A stretch of 64,000 nucleotides of DNA from Kiritimatiellia bacterium (lineage in GTDB: Bacteria > Verrucomicrobiota > Kiritimatiellia > CAIVKH01). The translations under genes and the position numbers were made by a program. Below are positions 1 through 8,062 of this stretch, piece after piece (positions within the stretch are counted from its first letter, which is position 1; every line of letters begins with the position of its first letter). The notes under the pieces are model-generated. The model worked only from the letters and a program-made list of their open reading frames with translations. It made no database searches and was not told where the DNA came from. The stretch is taken from positions 10,882-74,881 of the forward strand of contig DAOLDD010000012.1 in the NCBI GenBank assembly GCA_035327585.1. The letters run 5' to 3'.

Positions 1-434
1 AGGCGTTCCGTCCGCCCGGGATGCGCTGGGAGGACCGCGAGGTGCGCGGCGTGCGAATCATCAACGACGCCTACAACGCCAACCCGATGAGCATGCGCGC
101 GGCGCTCGATGCGTTCGCGGAAATTGACGTGGCGGGAAATCGATGGCTCGTGCTCGGCGCGATGCGGGAACTCGGCACGCACGCGGAGGAGGAACACCTG
201 GCGCTGGGCCGTTTGCTGGCGCGCGGTCCCTGGGCGGGCCTCGTCGCCGTCGGCCCGGAAGGGGCGTGGTTGCGCGAGGGCGCCCGCTCCGTGGGCTTCC
301 AGAAGATCCGGCTGGCGGCGGACGCGATGGAGGCGGCGCGGATATTGAAAGACTTGATTCAGCCCGGCGATGCCGTATTGCTCAAGGCCTCGCGCGGGGT
401 CGCGTTGGAGGATGTTCTGGATGAACTGGGGTGA
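1..434 (+). CDS. murF: UDP-N-acetylmuramoyl-tripeptide--D-alanyl-D-alanine ligase MurF, C-terminal fragment (5' end lies outside the window)
   Basis: Frame is open from position 3. The translation (RGVRIINDAYNANPMSMRAALDAFAEI...GAMRELG...LLKASRGVALE) matches the MurF C-terminal domain, and mraY follows immediately. Confidence 0.8.
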   Translation, partial: AFRPPGMRWEDREVRGVRIINDAYNANPMSMRAALDAFAEIDVAGNRWLVLGAMRELGTHAEEEHLALGRLLARGPWAGLVAVGPEGAWLREGARSVGFQKIRLAADAMEAARILKDLIQPGDAVLLKASRGVALEDVLDELG

Positions 435-552
435 GCAGGTATCGGGTGTCGGGTTTCAGGTGTCGGGGAGGACGCTCCTCGTTTACAACGTCTGTAAATC
501 CGGTCTTCGCGCTGTTCCAACCTCTGTAATTTACAGCCCCTGCAATTCCTCC

Positions 553-580
553 CTGACACCTGACACCTGACACCTGACAC
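553..580. repeat. Perfect 4x tandem heptamer CTGACAC, directly upstream of the mraY start
   Basis: Read in sequence: ctgacac x4 at 553-580. The inverse motif gtgtc occurs twice at 441-468, giving an imperfect long inverted repeat around a core with two TGTAAA/TTTACA palindromes. Confidence 0.8.
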
Positions 581-593
581 CCGAAACCCTCAT

Positions 594-1724: not shown

Positions 1725-3058
1725 TGCACACGGGCACCCATGCGTTGGTGTTGGGCCTTGGCGAGAGCGGCGCCCATGCGGCGAAGCTGCTGCTGCGCGA
1801 GGGGCTGCGCGTGACGATCTTTGAACAGCAGGTGCATCCCATGACCGCGGAGGCGTGGGTCGGGCTGGGCGGGCAGACGGTGGCTGCCGCTCCGGATGCG
1901 GCGATTCCCGCGGACGTGGATTTGTGCGTGGTGAGTCCCGGCATTCCGGTGGAACATCCCTGGCTGGCGTCCGCCCGCGCGCGGGGGTTGCACCCCGTGC
2001 CGGAGTTCGAGCTGGGCTGGAGCCGGTTCCGGGGCCGCGTGGCCGCGATCACGGGCACGAACGGCAAGAGCACGATGGTGAAGTGGATGGCGGAAAGCCT
2101 GCTCGCGTCCGGATTTCGCGCCGCGCCGGCGGGCAACTATGGGCCCAGTGTGAGCCGCGTGGTGTGCGAGCAGCCGGACCTGGACTGGCTGGTGATTGAG
2201 GCGAGTTCGTTCCAGTTGGAGACCGCGCGGCATTTTCGCGCCGACCTGTCCGTGCTGCTTAACATCGCGCCGAATCACCTGGACCGGCATCCGTCGATGG
2301 AAGCCTATGTGGACGCCAAGGCGCGCCTGTTCGCGCAGGTGCGGGGCCGGGATGTTTGCATGGCGCCGGCGGCGTGGCGGACGCGCATGCAGGCGGCGTC
2401 GGGCGGGCGTGGCGCCTGGTATAGCTTTGGTTGCGCGGCGACGGATGATTATCGCTGGGGAAACAGCTGTGTCCTGCATCGCGCGGATACCGTGCTGGAT
2501 GCGCGCGGAACCTTTCTCGACAACGCGATCCTGGGCCCGCATGCGGCGGCCGTGGCGGGCGCGCTGCACGCGGCGGGACTGCCGTTGGACGGAGCCGGGG
2601 CCGCGGCGCGCGCGTTCAAGTCGCTGCCTCATCGTATGGAGCCGGTCGCGGAGGCGGGCGGCATACGCTTCGTAAATGACTCGAAGGCGACCACGCTGAC
2701 GGCGATGCGCGCGGCACTCGAAATGGCCGGGGGACCGGTGCGGCTGATCGCGGGCGGATTGCTGAAAGAAACCGATTTGAATTGCGTCAAAGAAATGCTG
2801 GCCCTGCACGCCCGCGGGGTTTACCTTGTGGGGAAAGCTGCGGAAAAAATGGCTTCGCAGTGGGCGGATACCGTTCCTTGCGAGGTGTGCGGCGAGTTGG
2901 AGAAGGCGGTTGGTGCGGCGTGGCGGGCGGCGCGTCCGGGCGAGGTGATCCTGCTCTCGCCGGGTTGCGCGAGTTTCGACCAGTTTGCGAATTTTGAACG
3001 ACGTGGAGATGAATTTCGGCGCATCGCGAAAGCGCTGGCCGGGGAGCGAAAATCATGA
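1721..3058 (+). CDS. murD: UDP-N-acetylmuramoylalanine--D-glutamate ligase MurD
   Basis: GTG/ATG start overlaps the mraY stop. The N-terminal Rossmann domain (LVLGLGESG), the Mur ligase ATP motif GTNGKST and a C-terminal Mur ligase domain are present. Confidence 0.85.
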   Translation: MMHTGTHALVLGLGESGAHAAKLLLREGLRVTIFEQQVHPMTAEAWVGLGGQTVAAAPDAAIPADVDLCVVSPGIPVEHPWLASARARGLHPVPEFELGWSRFRGRVAAITGTNGKSTMVKWMAESLLASGFRAAPAGNYGPSVSRVVCEQPDLDWLVIEASSFQLETARHFRADLSVLLNIAPNHLDRHPSMEAYVDAKARLFAQVRGRDVCMAPAAWRTRMQAASGGRGAWYSFGCAATDDYRWGNSCVLHRADTVLDARGTFLDNAILGPHAAAVAGALHAAGLPLDGAGAAARAFKSLPHRMEPVAEAGGIRFVNDSKATTLTAMRAALEMAGGPVRLIAGGLLKETDLNCVKEMLALHARGVYLVGKAAEKMASQWADTVPCEVCGELEKAVGAAWRAARPGEVILLSPGCASFDQFANFERRGDEFRRIAKALAGERKS

Positions 3059-4068
3059 ACAACAAGCAACAGTGGAGTACGATCATGCAAGCGTCGGACG
3101 AACGTCGGAGCAACGTGCGGGGGCCCCTGCTGGCGGGCATCATTGCCGGGCTTCACGTGGTGGCAATTTCCGGTTTTCTGGTGATTCAGGGGTGCGGCAC
3201 GAAGCAGCCGATGGTTGAGCCGCCGCCGTCCCCGGTAATGCCGCCGCGCGGCGACGCAGGCGCGCCGCCCGCGGTGATGCCGCGTCCAAGTTTCCAGCCG
3301 CCGGTCGGTGTGGAACAGGCGCCGATGACAATCGAGGAAGCGTCCGTGCGCGTGCACACCGTTGCTGGCGGCGAATCGCTGGCCCGGATCGCAAACCGCT
3401 ACGGCGTGTCGGTGAGTGAGCTGGTGCAGCTCAATGGCATCAAGGACCCGAACAAGATTCGCGTTGGCCAGTCGCTGAAGCTGCCGAGCTATGCGTCGGA
3501 GTCCGCCGCCCCGGCCGCCGCCCCGAAACCGGTGAAGCCGAAGGTCGAGAAGGCATCCGCCCCGGCGGTCGCGGGTGACGGGACGTATGTGGTTCAGTCC
3601 GGCGACAGTTTGTCCAAGATCGCGTCGCGCCAGGGCACGACGGTGAAGGCGCTCAAGGAAGTGAACAACCTGCAGAGCGATGTGATTCGCATCGGACAGA
3701 AATTGAAACTGCCCGCGGGCGCAAAACCCGCCGCCGCCAAGCCCGCCGCCGCGAAACCCGCGCCCGCGCCTGAACCCGCTCCTGCCCCCGCGCCGGTCCC
3801 GGCGCCTTCCGTGCCCGACGCGACGATTCCGCCGCCGGTGACCGCGCCTGCGCCCACACCGGTTGCCGCGGCCGTCTCCGCGCCGGCGCCGTCGTTTGAT
3901 GCCGCCTCGATTCCGTTCGAATACACGGTGCGTCCCGGCGAGACGATTGATGACATCGCCCGGAACTTCGCCGTGCTCCGCCAGGACATCCTCTCGATGA
4001 ACGGCTTGTCCGAGGGTGCGACGGTGTCGGCCGGGCAGAAACTAAAGATCCCGATGTCCGCGCCCTGA
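3055..4068 (+). CDS. Secreted/lipoprotein-like protein with three LysM domains and a Pro/Ala-rich linker, with no peptidase domain
   Basis: Start overlaps the murD stop. Hydrophobic N-terminal segment followed by three LysM repeats (YVVQSGDSLSKIASRQGTTVKALKEVN..., etc.) and an (AAKPA)n / PAPAP linker. Confidence 0.7.
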   Translation: MNNKQQWSTIMQASDERRSNVRGPLLAGIIAGLHVVAISGFLVIQGCGTKQPMVEPPPSPVMPPRGDAGAPPAVMPRPSFQPPVGVEQAPMTIEEASVRVHTVAGGESLARIANRYGVSVSELVQLNGIKDPNKIRVGQSLKLPSYASESAAPAAAPKPVKPKVEKASAPAVAGDGTYVVQSGDSLSKIASRQGTTVKALKEVNNLQSDVIRIGQKLKLPAGAKPAAAKPAAAKPAPAPEPAPAPAPVPAPSVPDATIPPPVTAPAPTPVAAAVSAPAPSFDAASIPFEYTVRPGETIDDIARNFAVLRQDILSMNGLSEGATVSAGQKLKIPMSAP

Positions 4069-4086: not shown

Positions 4087-4131
4087 TGAGGGGTCTTGTG
4101 CACGCAGGTGCAGGAGGCCCCTCATTTGTTT
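4087..4131 (+). terminator. Rho-independent-type terminator hairpin after the LysM gene
   Basis: Perfect 7-bp stem tgagggg/cccctca with an internal tgcac/gtgca sub-stem, followed by tttgttt. Direct repeats GTTAACGAG(T/C)GGCGG follow at 4128-4164 before the ftsW start. Confidence 0.45.
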
Positions 4132-4173
4132 AACGAGTGGCGGGAAATGGTTAACGAGCGGCGGAGTTGAGCG

Positions 4174-5307
4174 ATGTGGCGGACGACAACCATTTTGGTG
4201 ACGGCGGTATTGCTGCTGGTCGCGCTGGGCATCGTGATGCTGGCGAGCACGAGCGGCGTGCACGGCAACGCGCTATTCGGCGATCCCAACTATTTTGTGA
4301 AGCGTCAGGCCGCGGCGTTGGTCCTCGGGTTGCTGGCGGCCATCCTGGGCGCGCGCATTGATTATCAGGTCTGGAAAAAATTCGCCGTGCCCTTGGCGGG
4401 GATTACGTTTCTCCTGCTGGCCGCCGTGCTCGTCCCCGGCATCGGCATTGAGGTCAAGGGCAGCCGTCGCTGGATTTCACTTGGCGTGACGACGATGCAG
4501 CCATCGGAAATCGGAAAGGTGGCGCTGATTTTTCTGCTCGCATGGTGGATGAGCCGGGTGAAGCGCAAGGCGGGCGAGTTGGTGCCCGGACTGATCATTC
4601 CGGGCGCGTTGATGGGCGCGCTGATTTTGCCGGTGCTCGTGGGCCCGGACTTTGGCACCAGTATGCTCATGGGCGCGGTTGGATTCGCGATGCTTTGGGC
4701 GGGCGGCTCGCGGTTCAGCCATTTGGCGATCGCGGGCACGGGCGCGGCGAGTTTCATGACGGTCCTGATCATGCAAAACGAGGTGCGCATGCGGCGCATC
4801 ATCGCGTTCCTCGACCCCGAACGGTACGCGGACCGGGAAGCGTTCCAGTTGCTGAACGCCATTTACGCCTTCGTCATGGGCGGCAGCGGCGGGGTGGGGC
4901 TGGGCGCGAGTTTGCAGAAGCGGTACTACCTGCCGGAATCGCACACTGATTTTATTTTCGCGATCATCGGCGAGGAACTGGGTTTGGCGGCGTCGATGGG
5001 CGTGCTGCTCCTGTTTGCGGTTATCTTCGTGTGCGGGCTGCGCATCTCCGCGCGGGCGCCGGATTCCTTCGGACGTCTCGCCGCGCTCGGGCTCACCTGC
5101 ATGATTACGATCCAGGCGGCGATCAACCTCGGCGTGGTGACGGGTTGCCTGCCCACCAAGGGGCTGCCGCTTCCGTTCATCAGCTACGGCGGCACCAGCC
5201 TCGCCATCACGCTCGGCATGGTCGGCGTGCTGGTGGGCATCGCGCGGCAGGCGGGTGAGGACGGCGCTTCGCTCTCCGTCGTCCGCGACCGCGCACGGCG
5301 AGTTTAG
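4174..5307 (+). CDS. ftsW: SEDS-family peptidoglycan glycosyltransferase, FtsW-like (assigned from its position after murD)
   Basis: 377-aa multi-TM FtsW/RodA/SpoVE-family protein (GLPLPFISYGGTSL). The dcw context argues FtsW rather than RodA. Confidence 0.75.
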   Translation: MWRTTTILVTAVLLLVALGIVMLASTSGVHGNALFGDPNYFVKRQAAALVLGLLAAILGARIDYQVWKKFAVPLAGITFLLLAAVLVPGIGIEVKGSRRWISLGVTTMQPSEIGKVALIFLLAWWMSRVKRKAGELVPGLIIPGALMGALILPVLVGPDFGTSMLMGAVGFAMLWAGGSRFSHLAIAGTGAASFMTVLIMQNEVRMRRIIAFLDPERYADREAFQLLNAIYAFVMGGSGGVGLGASLQKRYYLPESHTDFIFAIIGEELGLAASMGVLLLFAVIFVCGLRISARAPDSFGRLAALGLTCMITIQAAINLGVVTGCLPTKGLPLPFISYGGTSLAITLGMVGVLVGIARQAGEDGASLSVVRDRARRV

Positions 5308-5546
5308 CGCGAGCGCCGCGCGCGTTCGATCAGTTTTCCAATGATCGGATCATCGGCGACGCCGCCCAGCATGCCGGGTTGGCGTTCGGCCGGCGAAATT
5401 CAGAACGGATTGCTATCTCCAATTTGTAATTGGAAATCGGCAATGGGCCATTCATGCGAATCCGGGGATTGGGAGCGGATTGGGCCTGTGCGGTGGATTC
5501 AGTCTTGACGGGTGGAAGCGGGGTAAAGCACTATCCATGAAATTAA

Positions 5547-7562: not shown

Positions 7563-8062
7563 ACCAGATCGCCCTCATTTTTTCGCTCCTGATGGCTGCG
7601 CTGCTGCAGGCGGCCGTGCCGACGACCGCGTGGACGGGCTGGGCTCCGGCGCCGGTGATGGCCGGGCTGGTCGTGTATTACGCGCTCGTGCATCCGCGCG
7701 GCCTCGTGCTGGAGGTCGCCCTGCTCGCCGGCCTCGTGGAGGACAGCCTGAGCCAGATGCCGCTGGGCACCACGAGCTTCGCTTACGCCGTGGCCGGCCT
7801 CGTCATGGAGCGTTATCGCGAAGATGTCGTGGTGCGCCAGTGGACGACGCACGTCGTGTTCGGGGCGCTGGTGAACGCGTCGGCGACGGTGTTCGCGATG
7901 TTCATGTTGCTGAAGGACGGCCTGATCCAGCCGCCGGGCCTGCATGTCCTGTTGCGCCTAGCCGGCGCGTTTGTGCTCGGCGGACTCATCGCGCCGTTTG
8001 TGTTCAAGGCGATGGAAAATCTTGATGCCACGCTCGGGCATGTCGACGTGGAGGCCGGCTGA
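7559..8062 (+). CDS. mreD: Rod shape-determining protein MreD
   Basis: GTG at 7559 overlaps the mreC stop (7560-7562). Small multi-TM protein embedded in the longer 7073..8062 ORF, in the typical mreBCD position. Confidence 0.7.
   Translation: MNQIALIFSLLMAALLQAAVPTTAWTGWAPAPVMAGLVVYYALVHPRGLVLEVALLAGLVEDSLSQMPLGTTSFAYAVAGLVMERYREDVVVRQWTTHVVFGALVNASATVFAMFMLLKDGLIQPPGLHVLLRLAGAFVLGGLIAPFVFKAMENLDATLGHVDVEAG

Follow-up and report, generated by a model that had tools for sequence, protein, structure and literature searches.

The murF-mraY junction

In the stretch of Kiritimatiellia DNA analyzed here (64,000 nt, referred to below as the window), the genes murF and mraY of the division and cell wall (dcw) cluster are separated by a 159-nt spacer that extends from the murF stop codon (TGA, 432-434) to the mraY ATG at position 594. 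The spacer holds a composite element, consisting of two inverted arms built of heptamers and, between them, a core of three short boxes. The 3' part of murF, encoding UDP-MurNAc-pentapeptide synthetase, occupies positions 1-434 of the plus strand (open reading frame, ORF, 21-434), and the murF of an identical contig (L001) has the Mur_ligase, Mur_ligase_M, and Mur_ligase_C domains. The mraY gene, also on the plus strand (594-1724, coextensive with its ORF), encodes phospho-MurNAc-pentapeptide transferase and matches the Pfam entries Glycos_transf_4 and MraY_sig1; its N-terminal MLYFL is kept among relatives. Downstream of mraY lie murD, a gene for a LysM-domain protein, and ftsW.

The dcw cluster is among the most conserved of bacterial operons, and murF and mraY are usually adjacent or overlapping. 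This expectation, with which an earlier, sequence-only reading of the spacer began, holds within the phylum: among more distant members the murF-mraY spacer is 1-4 nt long in five loci (L178, L011, L012, L014, and L020) and 27 nt long in a sixth (L013). Spacers of 50-160 nt are seen only in the group whose MraY is 83% identical or more. Judged from this distribution, the window spacer is an insertion into a junction that is tight in more distant relatives.

The source of the window is an uncultured member of the Kiritimatiellia. Its MraY is 100% identical to an NCBI protein annotated "MAG TPA: Kiritimatiellia bacterium", and the same protein is carried on a 680-kb ENA contig, L001, which may be the window's own source contig. 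The worry that the repeats are an assembly artefact can be set aside, because, besides the identical spacer of L001, a diverged homologue that also has the arms occurs in two other assemblies, L002 and L003, which are independent (MraY 93% identical). A scan of genome contigs with a MraY peptide pattern gave a best match of 66% identity among the matches listed.

Heptamer arms and the predicted intercistronic hairpin

The left, G-rich arm (438-472, plus strand) starts 3 nt past the murF stop. It is composed of the imperfect heptamers GGTATCG, GGTGTCG, GGTTTCA, and GGTGTCG followed by GGGAGGA; Tandem Repeats Finder (TRF) recorded an imperfect GGTGTCG array at 438-467, and GTGTC occurs twice, at 446-450 and 460-464, as had been read from the sequence alone. 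The right, C-rich arm (547-581, plus strand) is TCCTCCC followed by four perfect TGACACC units. In another register these are the four perfect CTGACAC units at 553-580 that had been noted earlier, the last of them 13 nt upstream of the mraY ATG; TRF gave 552-581 in the CCTGACA register, with a period of 7, 4.3 copies, and 100% matches. A degenerate fifth unit, CCCGAAA (580-586), extends this array, which our array scan counted as five units from 552 to 586. The arms are 35 nt each and 86% complementary, with 74 nt between them, and as a pair (inverted repeat I1; the right arm also takes part in I2 and I3) they form the longest inverted repeat of the window. Being periodic, they can pair in alternative registers offset by 7 and 14 nt. 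The G-arm units resemble Shine-Dalgarno (SD) sequences (AGGU, GGAGGA) and the C-arm units resemble anti-SD sequences (ACCU, UCCUCC); the C-arm units also put TGA into all three reading frames.

Between the right arm and the mraY ATG lies a 12-nt linker, CGAAACCCTCAT (582-593, plus strand), without a Shine-Dalgarno motif. The sequence CYGAAAC stands beside the mraY ATG in L002, L009, and L010 too. A small local hairpin, GAGGA-CGC-TCCTC (468-480, plus strand), was read from the sequence and has the counterpart GAGGA-TGA-TCCTC in L002. In it the SD-like GGAGGA could pair locally instead of with TCCTCC (547-552); the minimum free energy (MFE) structure does not contain this hairpin. Three small ORFs that overlap the spacer, at 359-580 (minus strand), 370-570 (plus strand), and 382-573 (minus strand), were rejected, since the spacer of the relative differs by a 7-nt indel and no start codon follows the SD-like GGAGGA; because of the indel, the element appears to contain no conserved ORF.

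The mutually inverted arms had been proposed to fold into a long stem-loop in the transcript, and RNA folding agrees with the proposal. The MFE of 430-610 was -79.6 kcal/mol, compared with -47.6 ± 4.1 kcal/mol for shuffled sequences (z = -7.9), and none of 200 shuffles was as good; the minus strand of the same segment gave z = -5.6. The left arm is paired in the MFE structure (P(unpaired) 0.06). The predicted stem is ~35 bp long; an RNase III site would be expected to have ~20 bp or more of near-continuous double-stranded RNA on a transcript. In a partition-function model, the mraY initiation window (-15 to +15) was 0.36 unpaired in free RNA and 0.62 unpaired when a ribosome footprint was imposed at the murF stop (417-449). 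A shift of this kind is the behavior expected of a translational-coupling hairpin, but in the model it is modest. An Rfam search of the spacer returned only eukaryotic lncRNA and miRNA models, the best at no more than 17.5 bits and all with E > 1.

We tentatively favor the explanation that the element is an intercistronic mRNA hairpin that would loop out a REP-like insert and thereby couple or process the expression of murF and mraY. The exceptional predicted fold, the rank of the arms as the longest inverted repeat of the window, and a predicted stem of the same geometry in L002 and L003 all argue for it.

Two known kinds of system are the closest in design. In the RNase III sites of the phage T7 early mRNA and in MS2-type coupling, an intercistronic duplex is opened for downstream initiation by termination or cleavage. 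The window element is like these in being a long imperfect duplex, in its case a predicted fold, with its base near the upstream stop and the downstream start; it differs in that its loop is 74 nt long and carries a repeat element and in that its arms are periodic heptamers. The other is the Correia element (CREE or NEMIS) of Neisseria. One account (PMC2649163) describes an element of ~100-150 bp, with terminal inverted repeats around a core, that lies between co-transcribed genes, folds on the mRNA, and is bound or cleaved by RNase III, with altered expression of its neighbors. By that description, the window element resembles CREE in its size, terminal inverted repeats, conserved core, and operon-internal site, and by analogy it most plausibly works like CREE. 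The two also differ: CREE has hundreds of near-identical copies and TA target duplications, whereas the combination of arms and core in the window is unique, its arms are heptamers, and its core belongs to a separate family.

The three-box core

The core (482-546, plus strand; 65 nt; direct-repeat family D1) is a copy of a box repeat that is dispersed in Kiritimatiellia. Box 1, TTACA-ACGTC-TGTAA (483-497, plus strand), lies within the palindrome TTTACA-acgtc-TGTAAA (482-498), one of two found in the sequence-only reading. Box 2, TTCCA-ACCTC-TGTAA (515-529, plus strand), follows 32 nt after box 1, and box 3, TTACA-GCCCC-TGCAA (531-545, plus strand), with one mismatch, 16 nt after box 2, so that the core consists of 15-bp boxes of the form TTMCA-N5-TGKAA at a spacing of 32 + 16 nt. 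The second palindrome, CTGTAA-t-TTACAG, does exist, 1 nt away from where it had been placed (524-536 instead of 523-535), and it arises because boxes 2 and 3 abut in inverted sense.

The same three-box 32 + 16 layout is found in L173 and L180. The L173 core, upstream of a DUF3465 gene, is 76.6% identical to window positions 483-545 over 64 nt (E = 3e-5). The suggestion that the spacer might be a small repetitive element is correct for the central palindromes, which are dispersed, clade-specific boxes, and unsupported for the element as a whole, whose arms have no dispersed copies in the loci covered. In the window lineage the box repeat is rare, with one locus in the 64 kb of the window, and the window copy bears a derived right half, TGTAA. 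We considered single boxes as RNA hairpins and disfavored that reading, since the commonest variant, TTCCA..TGTAA, has a central C/U mismatch.

A dispersed family of box arrays

The general form of the family is TTCCAA-N3-TTGGAA, in arrays of two to four boxes with a strict 31/32-nt period, located between genes at many different junctions. At the murF-mraY junction itself, L007 and L177 (MraY 83% identical to that of the window) have two TTCCAA-N3-TTGGAA boxes with a period of 32 nt, and L005, L009, and L010 (87-88%) have two boxes of the form TTCCAT..CTGTAA with a period of 31 nt. The window and L002 (100% and 93%) share the arrangement TTACA-N5-TGTAA, TTCCA-N5-TGTAA, TTACA-N5-TGCAA at 32 + 16 nt. 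In L004, with an 89% identical MraY and a 50-nt murF-mraY spacer, the box pair is replaced by a palindrome with 8-bp arms, CAGTAACC-agtgacc-GGTTACTG (1951-2000).

Elsewhere, box arrays were found at the murE/murF junction of L013, at an emrE-like/phosphoribosyltransferase junction of L177, at the 3' end of pyk in L178, upstream of rlmN in L166, and directly upstream of the DUF3465 gene in L173 and of its orthologue in L180. L179 has four boxes in the divergent region between DUF1015 and mraZ, with an exact 31-nt period, and a further array between ftsW and asd. Nearer to mraZ, L179 also has separate TGGKN-type repeats (TGGTGGG..TGGTGTA..TTGGGTC), which resemble the canonical operator repeats of MraZ; the four boxes and these repeats are at 2514-2621 and 2690-2737. 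A pattern search for box pairs yielded seven stretches from six IMG/VR contigs (51-61% GC), all seven with arrays and several with additional ones. A two-box pattern scan of metagenomes gave 86 stretches, nearly all of them unrelated low-GC coding sequence and none with mraY; L166 and L173 were the informative ones.

The density was 13 arrays per 206 kb in loci of the Kiritimatiellia clade, which are a biased sample, and 58 perfect boxes were present in 232 kb of box-containing loci. The gaps between neighboring boxes were 31 nt (15 cases), 32 nt (11), 16 nt (2), and 41 nt (1), so that 26 of 29 were 31 or 32 nt. Units are 15-19 nt long, the spacers between them (12-17 nt) are unconserved, and the arrays are without conserved termini. 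Few central triplets are used (CGG, CGA, TCA, GGG, GCG, and their complements). Of 26 pairs of neighboring boxes, 6 had reverse-complementary triplets and 7 had the same triplet, the chance expectation being ~0.4 for either class. No box arrays were found in the controls, 892 kb of non-Kiritimatiellia loci and 524 kb of other viral loci. Most arrays lie between genes, often with one end 1-7 nt from a stop or start codon, as expected of transcript-borne elements; some genomes hold several arrays within 12-21 kb. An Rfam search of the L179 box array gave only chance miRNA and small RNA matches. Our literature search found no description of the box motif, nor of Kiritimatiellia repeats or promoters.

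Some further observations concern possible relatives of the boxes and the genomes that carry them. The 248-nt spacer between ftsW and murG in the window contains a degenerate box-like sequence, TTCCAATGATCGGAT (5336-5350), and the palindrome TCCAATT-TGT-AATTGGA (5418-5434). Both may be decayed relatives of TTCCAA-N3-TTGGAA, an intact box pair being present after ftsW in L179. In L186 a box pair (7669-7715) apparently lies inside an ORF of ~2,500 codons with high GC3, on the opposite strand, and is either a rare intragenic copy or a sign that the ORF is spurious. Upstream of the DUF3465 core in L180 (1-200), at the contig end, are short tandem units of the CGCAGAG type and CCCCTCC-N3/4-GGAGGGG palindromes; intergenic repeats seem to be plentiful in genomes of this type and may account for breaks in the assemblies.

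REPs are short palindromic extragenic units, clustered in both orientations and present in many copies, often downstream of stop codons in operons, and a REPIN is formed by two inverted REPs that make a long hairpin (PMC3116915, PMC3337134). The Kiritimatiellia boxes share with the REP, BIME, and REPIN elements of Proteobacteria, which are associated with RAYT, the palindromic unit, the extragenic site, the dispersal, and the mixed orientation. They differ in the size of the unit (15-19 nt, as opposed to ~20-35 nt), in the rigid 31/32-nt period in place of variable spacing, in their unconserved spacers, and in the phylum; the heptamer arms of the window differ from REPINs in being single-copy. 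The pneumococcal BOX element (boxA-boxB(n)-boxC) is a modular intergenic repeat in which conserved terminal modules flank boxB units of 45 nt, repeated in tandem in varying number. The Kiritimatiellia arrays are likewise modular with a variable unit number, but they lack the conserved termini. The box repeat is REP/BOX-like in being palindromic, dispersed, of mixed orientation, and gained and lost across junctions. The short unit and the rigid period of three helical turns are atypical of REPs, and a protein-binding lattice is a live alternative.

That alternative can be stated as a DNA-level regulatory region, in which the phased boxes would be operators of a multimeric protein, an internal dcw promoter for mraY-murD-ftsW, or both, and in which the arms would insulate, whether by stopping read-through transcripts in the manner of a terminator hairpin or by binding protein as one more array. 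The strict 31/32-bp spacing with unconserved sequence between the boxes agrees with this, as do the perfect conservation of the half-sites and the AT-richness of the boxes in a genome of 63% GC. Arrays are found upstream of genes, among them the one of four boxes in the divergent promoter region of mraZ in L179; the asymmetric variant TTCCA..TGTAA points toward the downstream gene in 11 of 11 boxes from three independent loci; and the C/U mismatch of this intermediate form would weaken an RNA hairpin. However, no sigma-70-like pair of -35 and -10 hexamers (16-18 nt apart) was found in 300-750, a weak test insofar as the promoter types of the phylum may differ, and a scan of the same segment for intrinsic terminators gave no site, the right arm being followed by CCCGAAACCCTCAT without a U-tract. 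Arrays also occur right after stop codons and at the 3' ends of genes. The several arrays within 12-21 kb, the triplet variants in both orientations, and the gain and loss at junctions look like copy-and-paste propagation and not like a regulon. Extrusion of a cruciform with a 74-nt loop is likewise unlikely. We regard regulation at the DNA level as an unlikely explanation of the element.

Two other comparisons were negative. CRISPR arrays normally have many repeats of 23-47 nt with unique spacers of 21-72 nt and cas genes nearby. A CRISPR identity of the box arrays was rejected, given repeats of 15-19 nt, spacers of 12-17 nt, two to four units, and no cas domains among the called neighbors. 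By eye, the boxes matched none of the following known motifs: the MraZ boxes (TGGGN repeats), LexA (CTGT-N8-ACAG), sigma-54 (-24/-12), ECF (GGAAC-N16), BirA, cre/LacI-type operators, the IHF consensus, and parS/matS.

Heptamer arrays in other genomes

The 20-mer GACACCTGACACCTGACACC, which represents (GACACCT)n, was found in 42 IMG/VR stretches with GC contents of 0.37-0.70, in 33 distinct contexts. Further occurrences are in a cyanobacterial replicon and in a Cupriavidus megaplasmid, where the tract begins at the TGA of a gene. When the whole spacer was compared with plasmids and phages by BLAST, only the heptamer tract was matched, the cyanobacterium Kovacikia being among the matches. Of composition-matched control heptamers, one without TGAC was found in a single stretch and one containing TGAC in 19. 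The latter control, (CCAGTCA)n or equivalently (TGACTGG)n, was found in the viral stretches L230-L248, some of which have several arrays per contig. Arrays of TGAC-containing heptamers may therefore be a general enriched class.

These arrays are located at junctions between genes; the following long ORF begins within 0-34 nt of the array in about 15 contexts, often preceded by a Shine-Dalgarno motif. In 7 of the 33 contexts, a G-rich heptamer array located upstream pairs with 14 nt or more of the C-rich tract (20 nt matched), and the opposite order was found in none. L216 and L192 repeat the layout of the window, with stop codon, a few nucleotides, (GGGTGYC)n or (CAGGRAN)n, loop, (CCTGAnn)n, in some cases a Shine-Dalgarno motif, and start codon, and the design recurs in phage-like contigs (L216, L192, L196, L228, and L213). 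In two viral contigs the arm unit differs and the hairpin design is kept. L212 (2780-2830) has 9-mer arm units, GGGACCGAA, beside the (GACACCT)n array, and L194 (545-570) has GGTTTCA heptamers followed by a T-run, with a terminator-like look.

No box arrays were present in the 524 kb of loci from the heptamer searches, real and control, and heptamer arrays were absent from the box-array loci. On this showing the heptamer-array class is independent of the box repeat. The short tandemly repeated repetitive (STRR) heptanucleotides of cyanobacteria were reportedly described by Mazel et al. in 1990, with TTGGTCA (TGACCAA in the other sense) as an example. STRR units, such as CCCCAGT, TTGGTCA, and CAACAGT, occur at many loci of heterocystous cyanobacteria. 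The window tract, with its period of 7 and 4.3 copies, is like the STRRs in consisting of tandem 7-nt intergenic units that contain TGAC or GTCA. It differs in its unit (CCTGACA), its phylum, its single locus in the window, and its arrangement as two inverted arrays in a junction hairpin. The heptamer class thus resembles the cyanobacterial STRR heptamers and is not identical to them.

Whether the whole element is mobile

The arms and core together, ~152 bp, could be taken for a MITE (miniature inverted-repeat transposable element) or a REPIN-like mobile element with the arms as its terminal inverted repeats. Its dimensions suit this: 35-nt terminal inverted repeats bound a short non-coding unit of ~150 bp with a conserved core at an intergenic site within an operon, much as in Correia elements (PMC2649163) and REPINs (PMC3116915, PMC3337134). 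Dispersed copies of the whole element, which the sequence-only reading had proposed to look for, were not found: there is no further copy of the arms outside 438-589 in the window and none in ~1.3 Mb of other bacterial loci. Six matches to the 14-mer CTGACACCTGACAC, allowing 2 mismatches at most, were counted in the window, where 0.24 would be expected, and all six are within the spacer. The flanks of the arms, GAGCA and CGAAA, are not direct repeats, nor are those of the alternative registers, so no target-site duplication was recognized. The matches to plasmids and phages cover the heptamer tract only, and the core at murF-mraY is older than the arms. From the arm-less cores elsewhere, the single arm locus within the loci covered, and the lack of a flanking direct repeat, we conclude that the composite is not a MITE or REPIN as a unit, and mobility of the whole seems very improbable.

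Divergence from the closest relative

The two halves of the element differ in how they have changed since the separation of the window lineage and L002. The half-sites of the boxes are identical at 30 of 30 positions, compared with 77% identity at the four-fold degenerate sites of the flanking genes (n = 513; range 0.64-0.83); the core as a whole is 91% identical and its non-box part 83%. Because all 30 half-site positions are kept at this divergence, the boxes are, by this measure, under purifying selection.

The arms are found only in the window lineage and in L002 and L003, and all other copies of the core, whether at murF-mraY or elsewhere, are without them. From this distribution the arms are a separate layer, younger than the core. 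The L002 stem is 29 nt long and 83% complementary, starting 8 nt after the stop and ending 10 nt before the ATG. In line with the slippage that had been suspected, the heptamer tract changes by whole units: in the 93% identical relative it is one unit (7 nt) shorter, the right arm of the window having been homogenized to a perfect tract of four and being one heptamer longer. The perfect tract and the 7-nt indel are slippage signatures. When the inner 27 bp were re-registered by hand, one change was compensatory (A458-U561 to G-C), two were compatible with wobble pairing, and two, further out, were disruptive; within the inner 16 bp all changes were compatible with pairing.

Several of these results weigh against a function of the arms as a hairpin. 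Only a single compensatory pair was seen, and in the MAFFT register one compensatory and two one-sided changes stand beside 11 broken pairs of 59, for two lineages. The broken pairs are mostly in the outer helix, which is not conserved in L002. The arms are 0.83 identical, close to the neutral rate (0.77 at pooled four-fold sites), and by our rough estimate 83-86% complementarity is about what neutral decay would leave of a once-perfect inverted duplication. The junctions of L005, L007, L009, L010, and L177, and the other core copies, function without arms, and the modelled change in accessibility (0.36 to 0.62) is modest. In the sequence comparison, selection on the arms is thus not evident.

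The same observations lend themselves to a neutral explanation, in which the core already at the junction was enclosed by an inverted duplication or a template switch, and heptamer slippage then left a palindrome that is now decaying without function. Such a palindrome would be tolerated because the spacer sequence would not matter for initiation at mraY. The near-neutral arm identity and the degree of complementarity would then need no other cause; the perfect fourfold tract with its 7-nt indel is classic slippage; and the arms are lacking in every other core-bearing lineage. Heptamer arrays with TGA at gene ends of unrelated genomes, such as that of Cupriavidus, could have come from neutral duplication of a stop-codon heptamer, and a second heptamer of the TGAC type is also common (19 stretches). 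On the other hand, the arms persist, with their geometry relative to stop and start, in two lineages that are ~23% apart at four-fold sites, and the inner 16 bp show pairing-compatible changes only. The placement of the G-rich arm first at junctions of unrelated phage-like contigs (seven cases, none with the C-rich arm first) is hard to obtain by drift alone. We consider a neutral origin plausible, if somewhat less likely than the coupling or processing hairpin.

Other features of the dcw cluster

The LysM-domain gene (3055-4068) lies within the dcw cluster between murD and ftsW and overlaps the end of murD by 4 nt; a LysM gene is present in the same position in L001, L005, L007, and L179. The spacer between this gene and ftsW contains a GC-rich hairpin, GAGGGG...CCCCTC (4088-4123), followed by ATTTGTTT, with a terminator-like look. 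The direct repeats GTTTAACGAGTGGCGG (4128-4143) and GGTTAACGAGCGGCGG (4149-4164) follow 21 nt apart, shortly before the ftsW ATG at 4174.

Interpretation

The intercistronic hairpin that we favor can be set out as a composite, lineage-specific dcw element that would act mainly at the RNA level and that would have been built in two layers. The presence of the 65-nt core copy between murF and mraY would predate the split of the genera whose MraY proteins are at least 83% identical. The inverted arrays (left, GGTGTCN; right, NGACACC) would be a later gain, confined to the lineage that the window shares with the 93% identical relative. In the polycistronic transcript the arrays would pair into a stem of ~35 bp and loop out the 74-nt segment that contains the core. 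With the stem running from 3 nt after the murF stop to 12 nt before the mraY AUG, the 159-nt spacer would be reduced to an effective gap of ~15 nt.

In this mechanism the mraY leader, which has no SD sequence, would be partly masked by the stem. A ribosome terminating on murF might then melt the outer turns of the stem and free the C/A-rich leader, and initiation at mraY would in this way be coupled to the translation of murF. The long duplex would also be a likely substrate of RNase III, and the junction may be processed. Gain and loss of heptamer units by replication slippage would shift the register of pairing. Besides the predicted fold, the whole-unit 7-nt indel, the dispersed core under purifying selection, and the independent recurrence of the design in phage-like contigs are consistent with such a mechanism.

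A bolder interpretation is that two undescribed repeat systems meet at murF-mraY. The first would be the phased box arrays, with the 31/32-bp period as the lattice of a multimeric DNA- or RNA-binding protein, or else as a new REP/RAYT-like system, in which the box sequence would have co-evolved across the loci of a lineage from TTGGAA to TGTAA. The second would be a heptamer module shared by bacteria and phages, consisting of inverted NNTCRGG/CCYGANN arrays in which SD-like sequence is paired with anti-SD-like sequence and a stop codon is present in every frame; by retaining terminating ribosomes or passing them on, it would link the translation of neighboring genes across long spacers. All of this together we think improbable. 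Both the box arrays and the heptamer-array junction hairpins appear to be undescribed in the literature searched. The window element itself is best filed as a REP/BOX-like repeat combined with an intercistronic hairpin of STRR-like heptamers, and not as a categorically new system.

The Kiritimatiellia, a lineage of the PVC group, are almost entirely uncultured, and we know of no account of their promoters, operators, or repeat elements. Either of the two elements could give a handle on regulation or genome dynamics in this group, or, given the variable number of heptamers, serve as a marker for strain typing. Should the arms be neutral, they would be a clean case of the birth and slippage of a palindrome within an essential operon. 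In any event the locus is an example of a conserved junction that has absorbed repeat DNA, with an RNA hairpin possibly restoring the link between the two genes.

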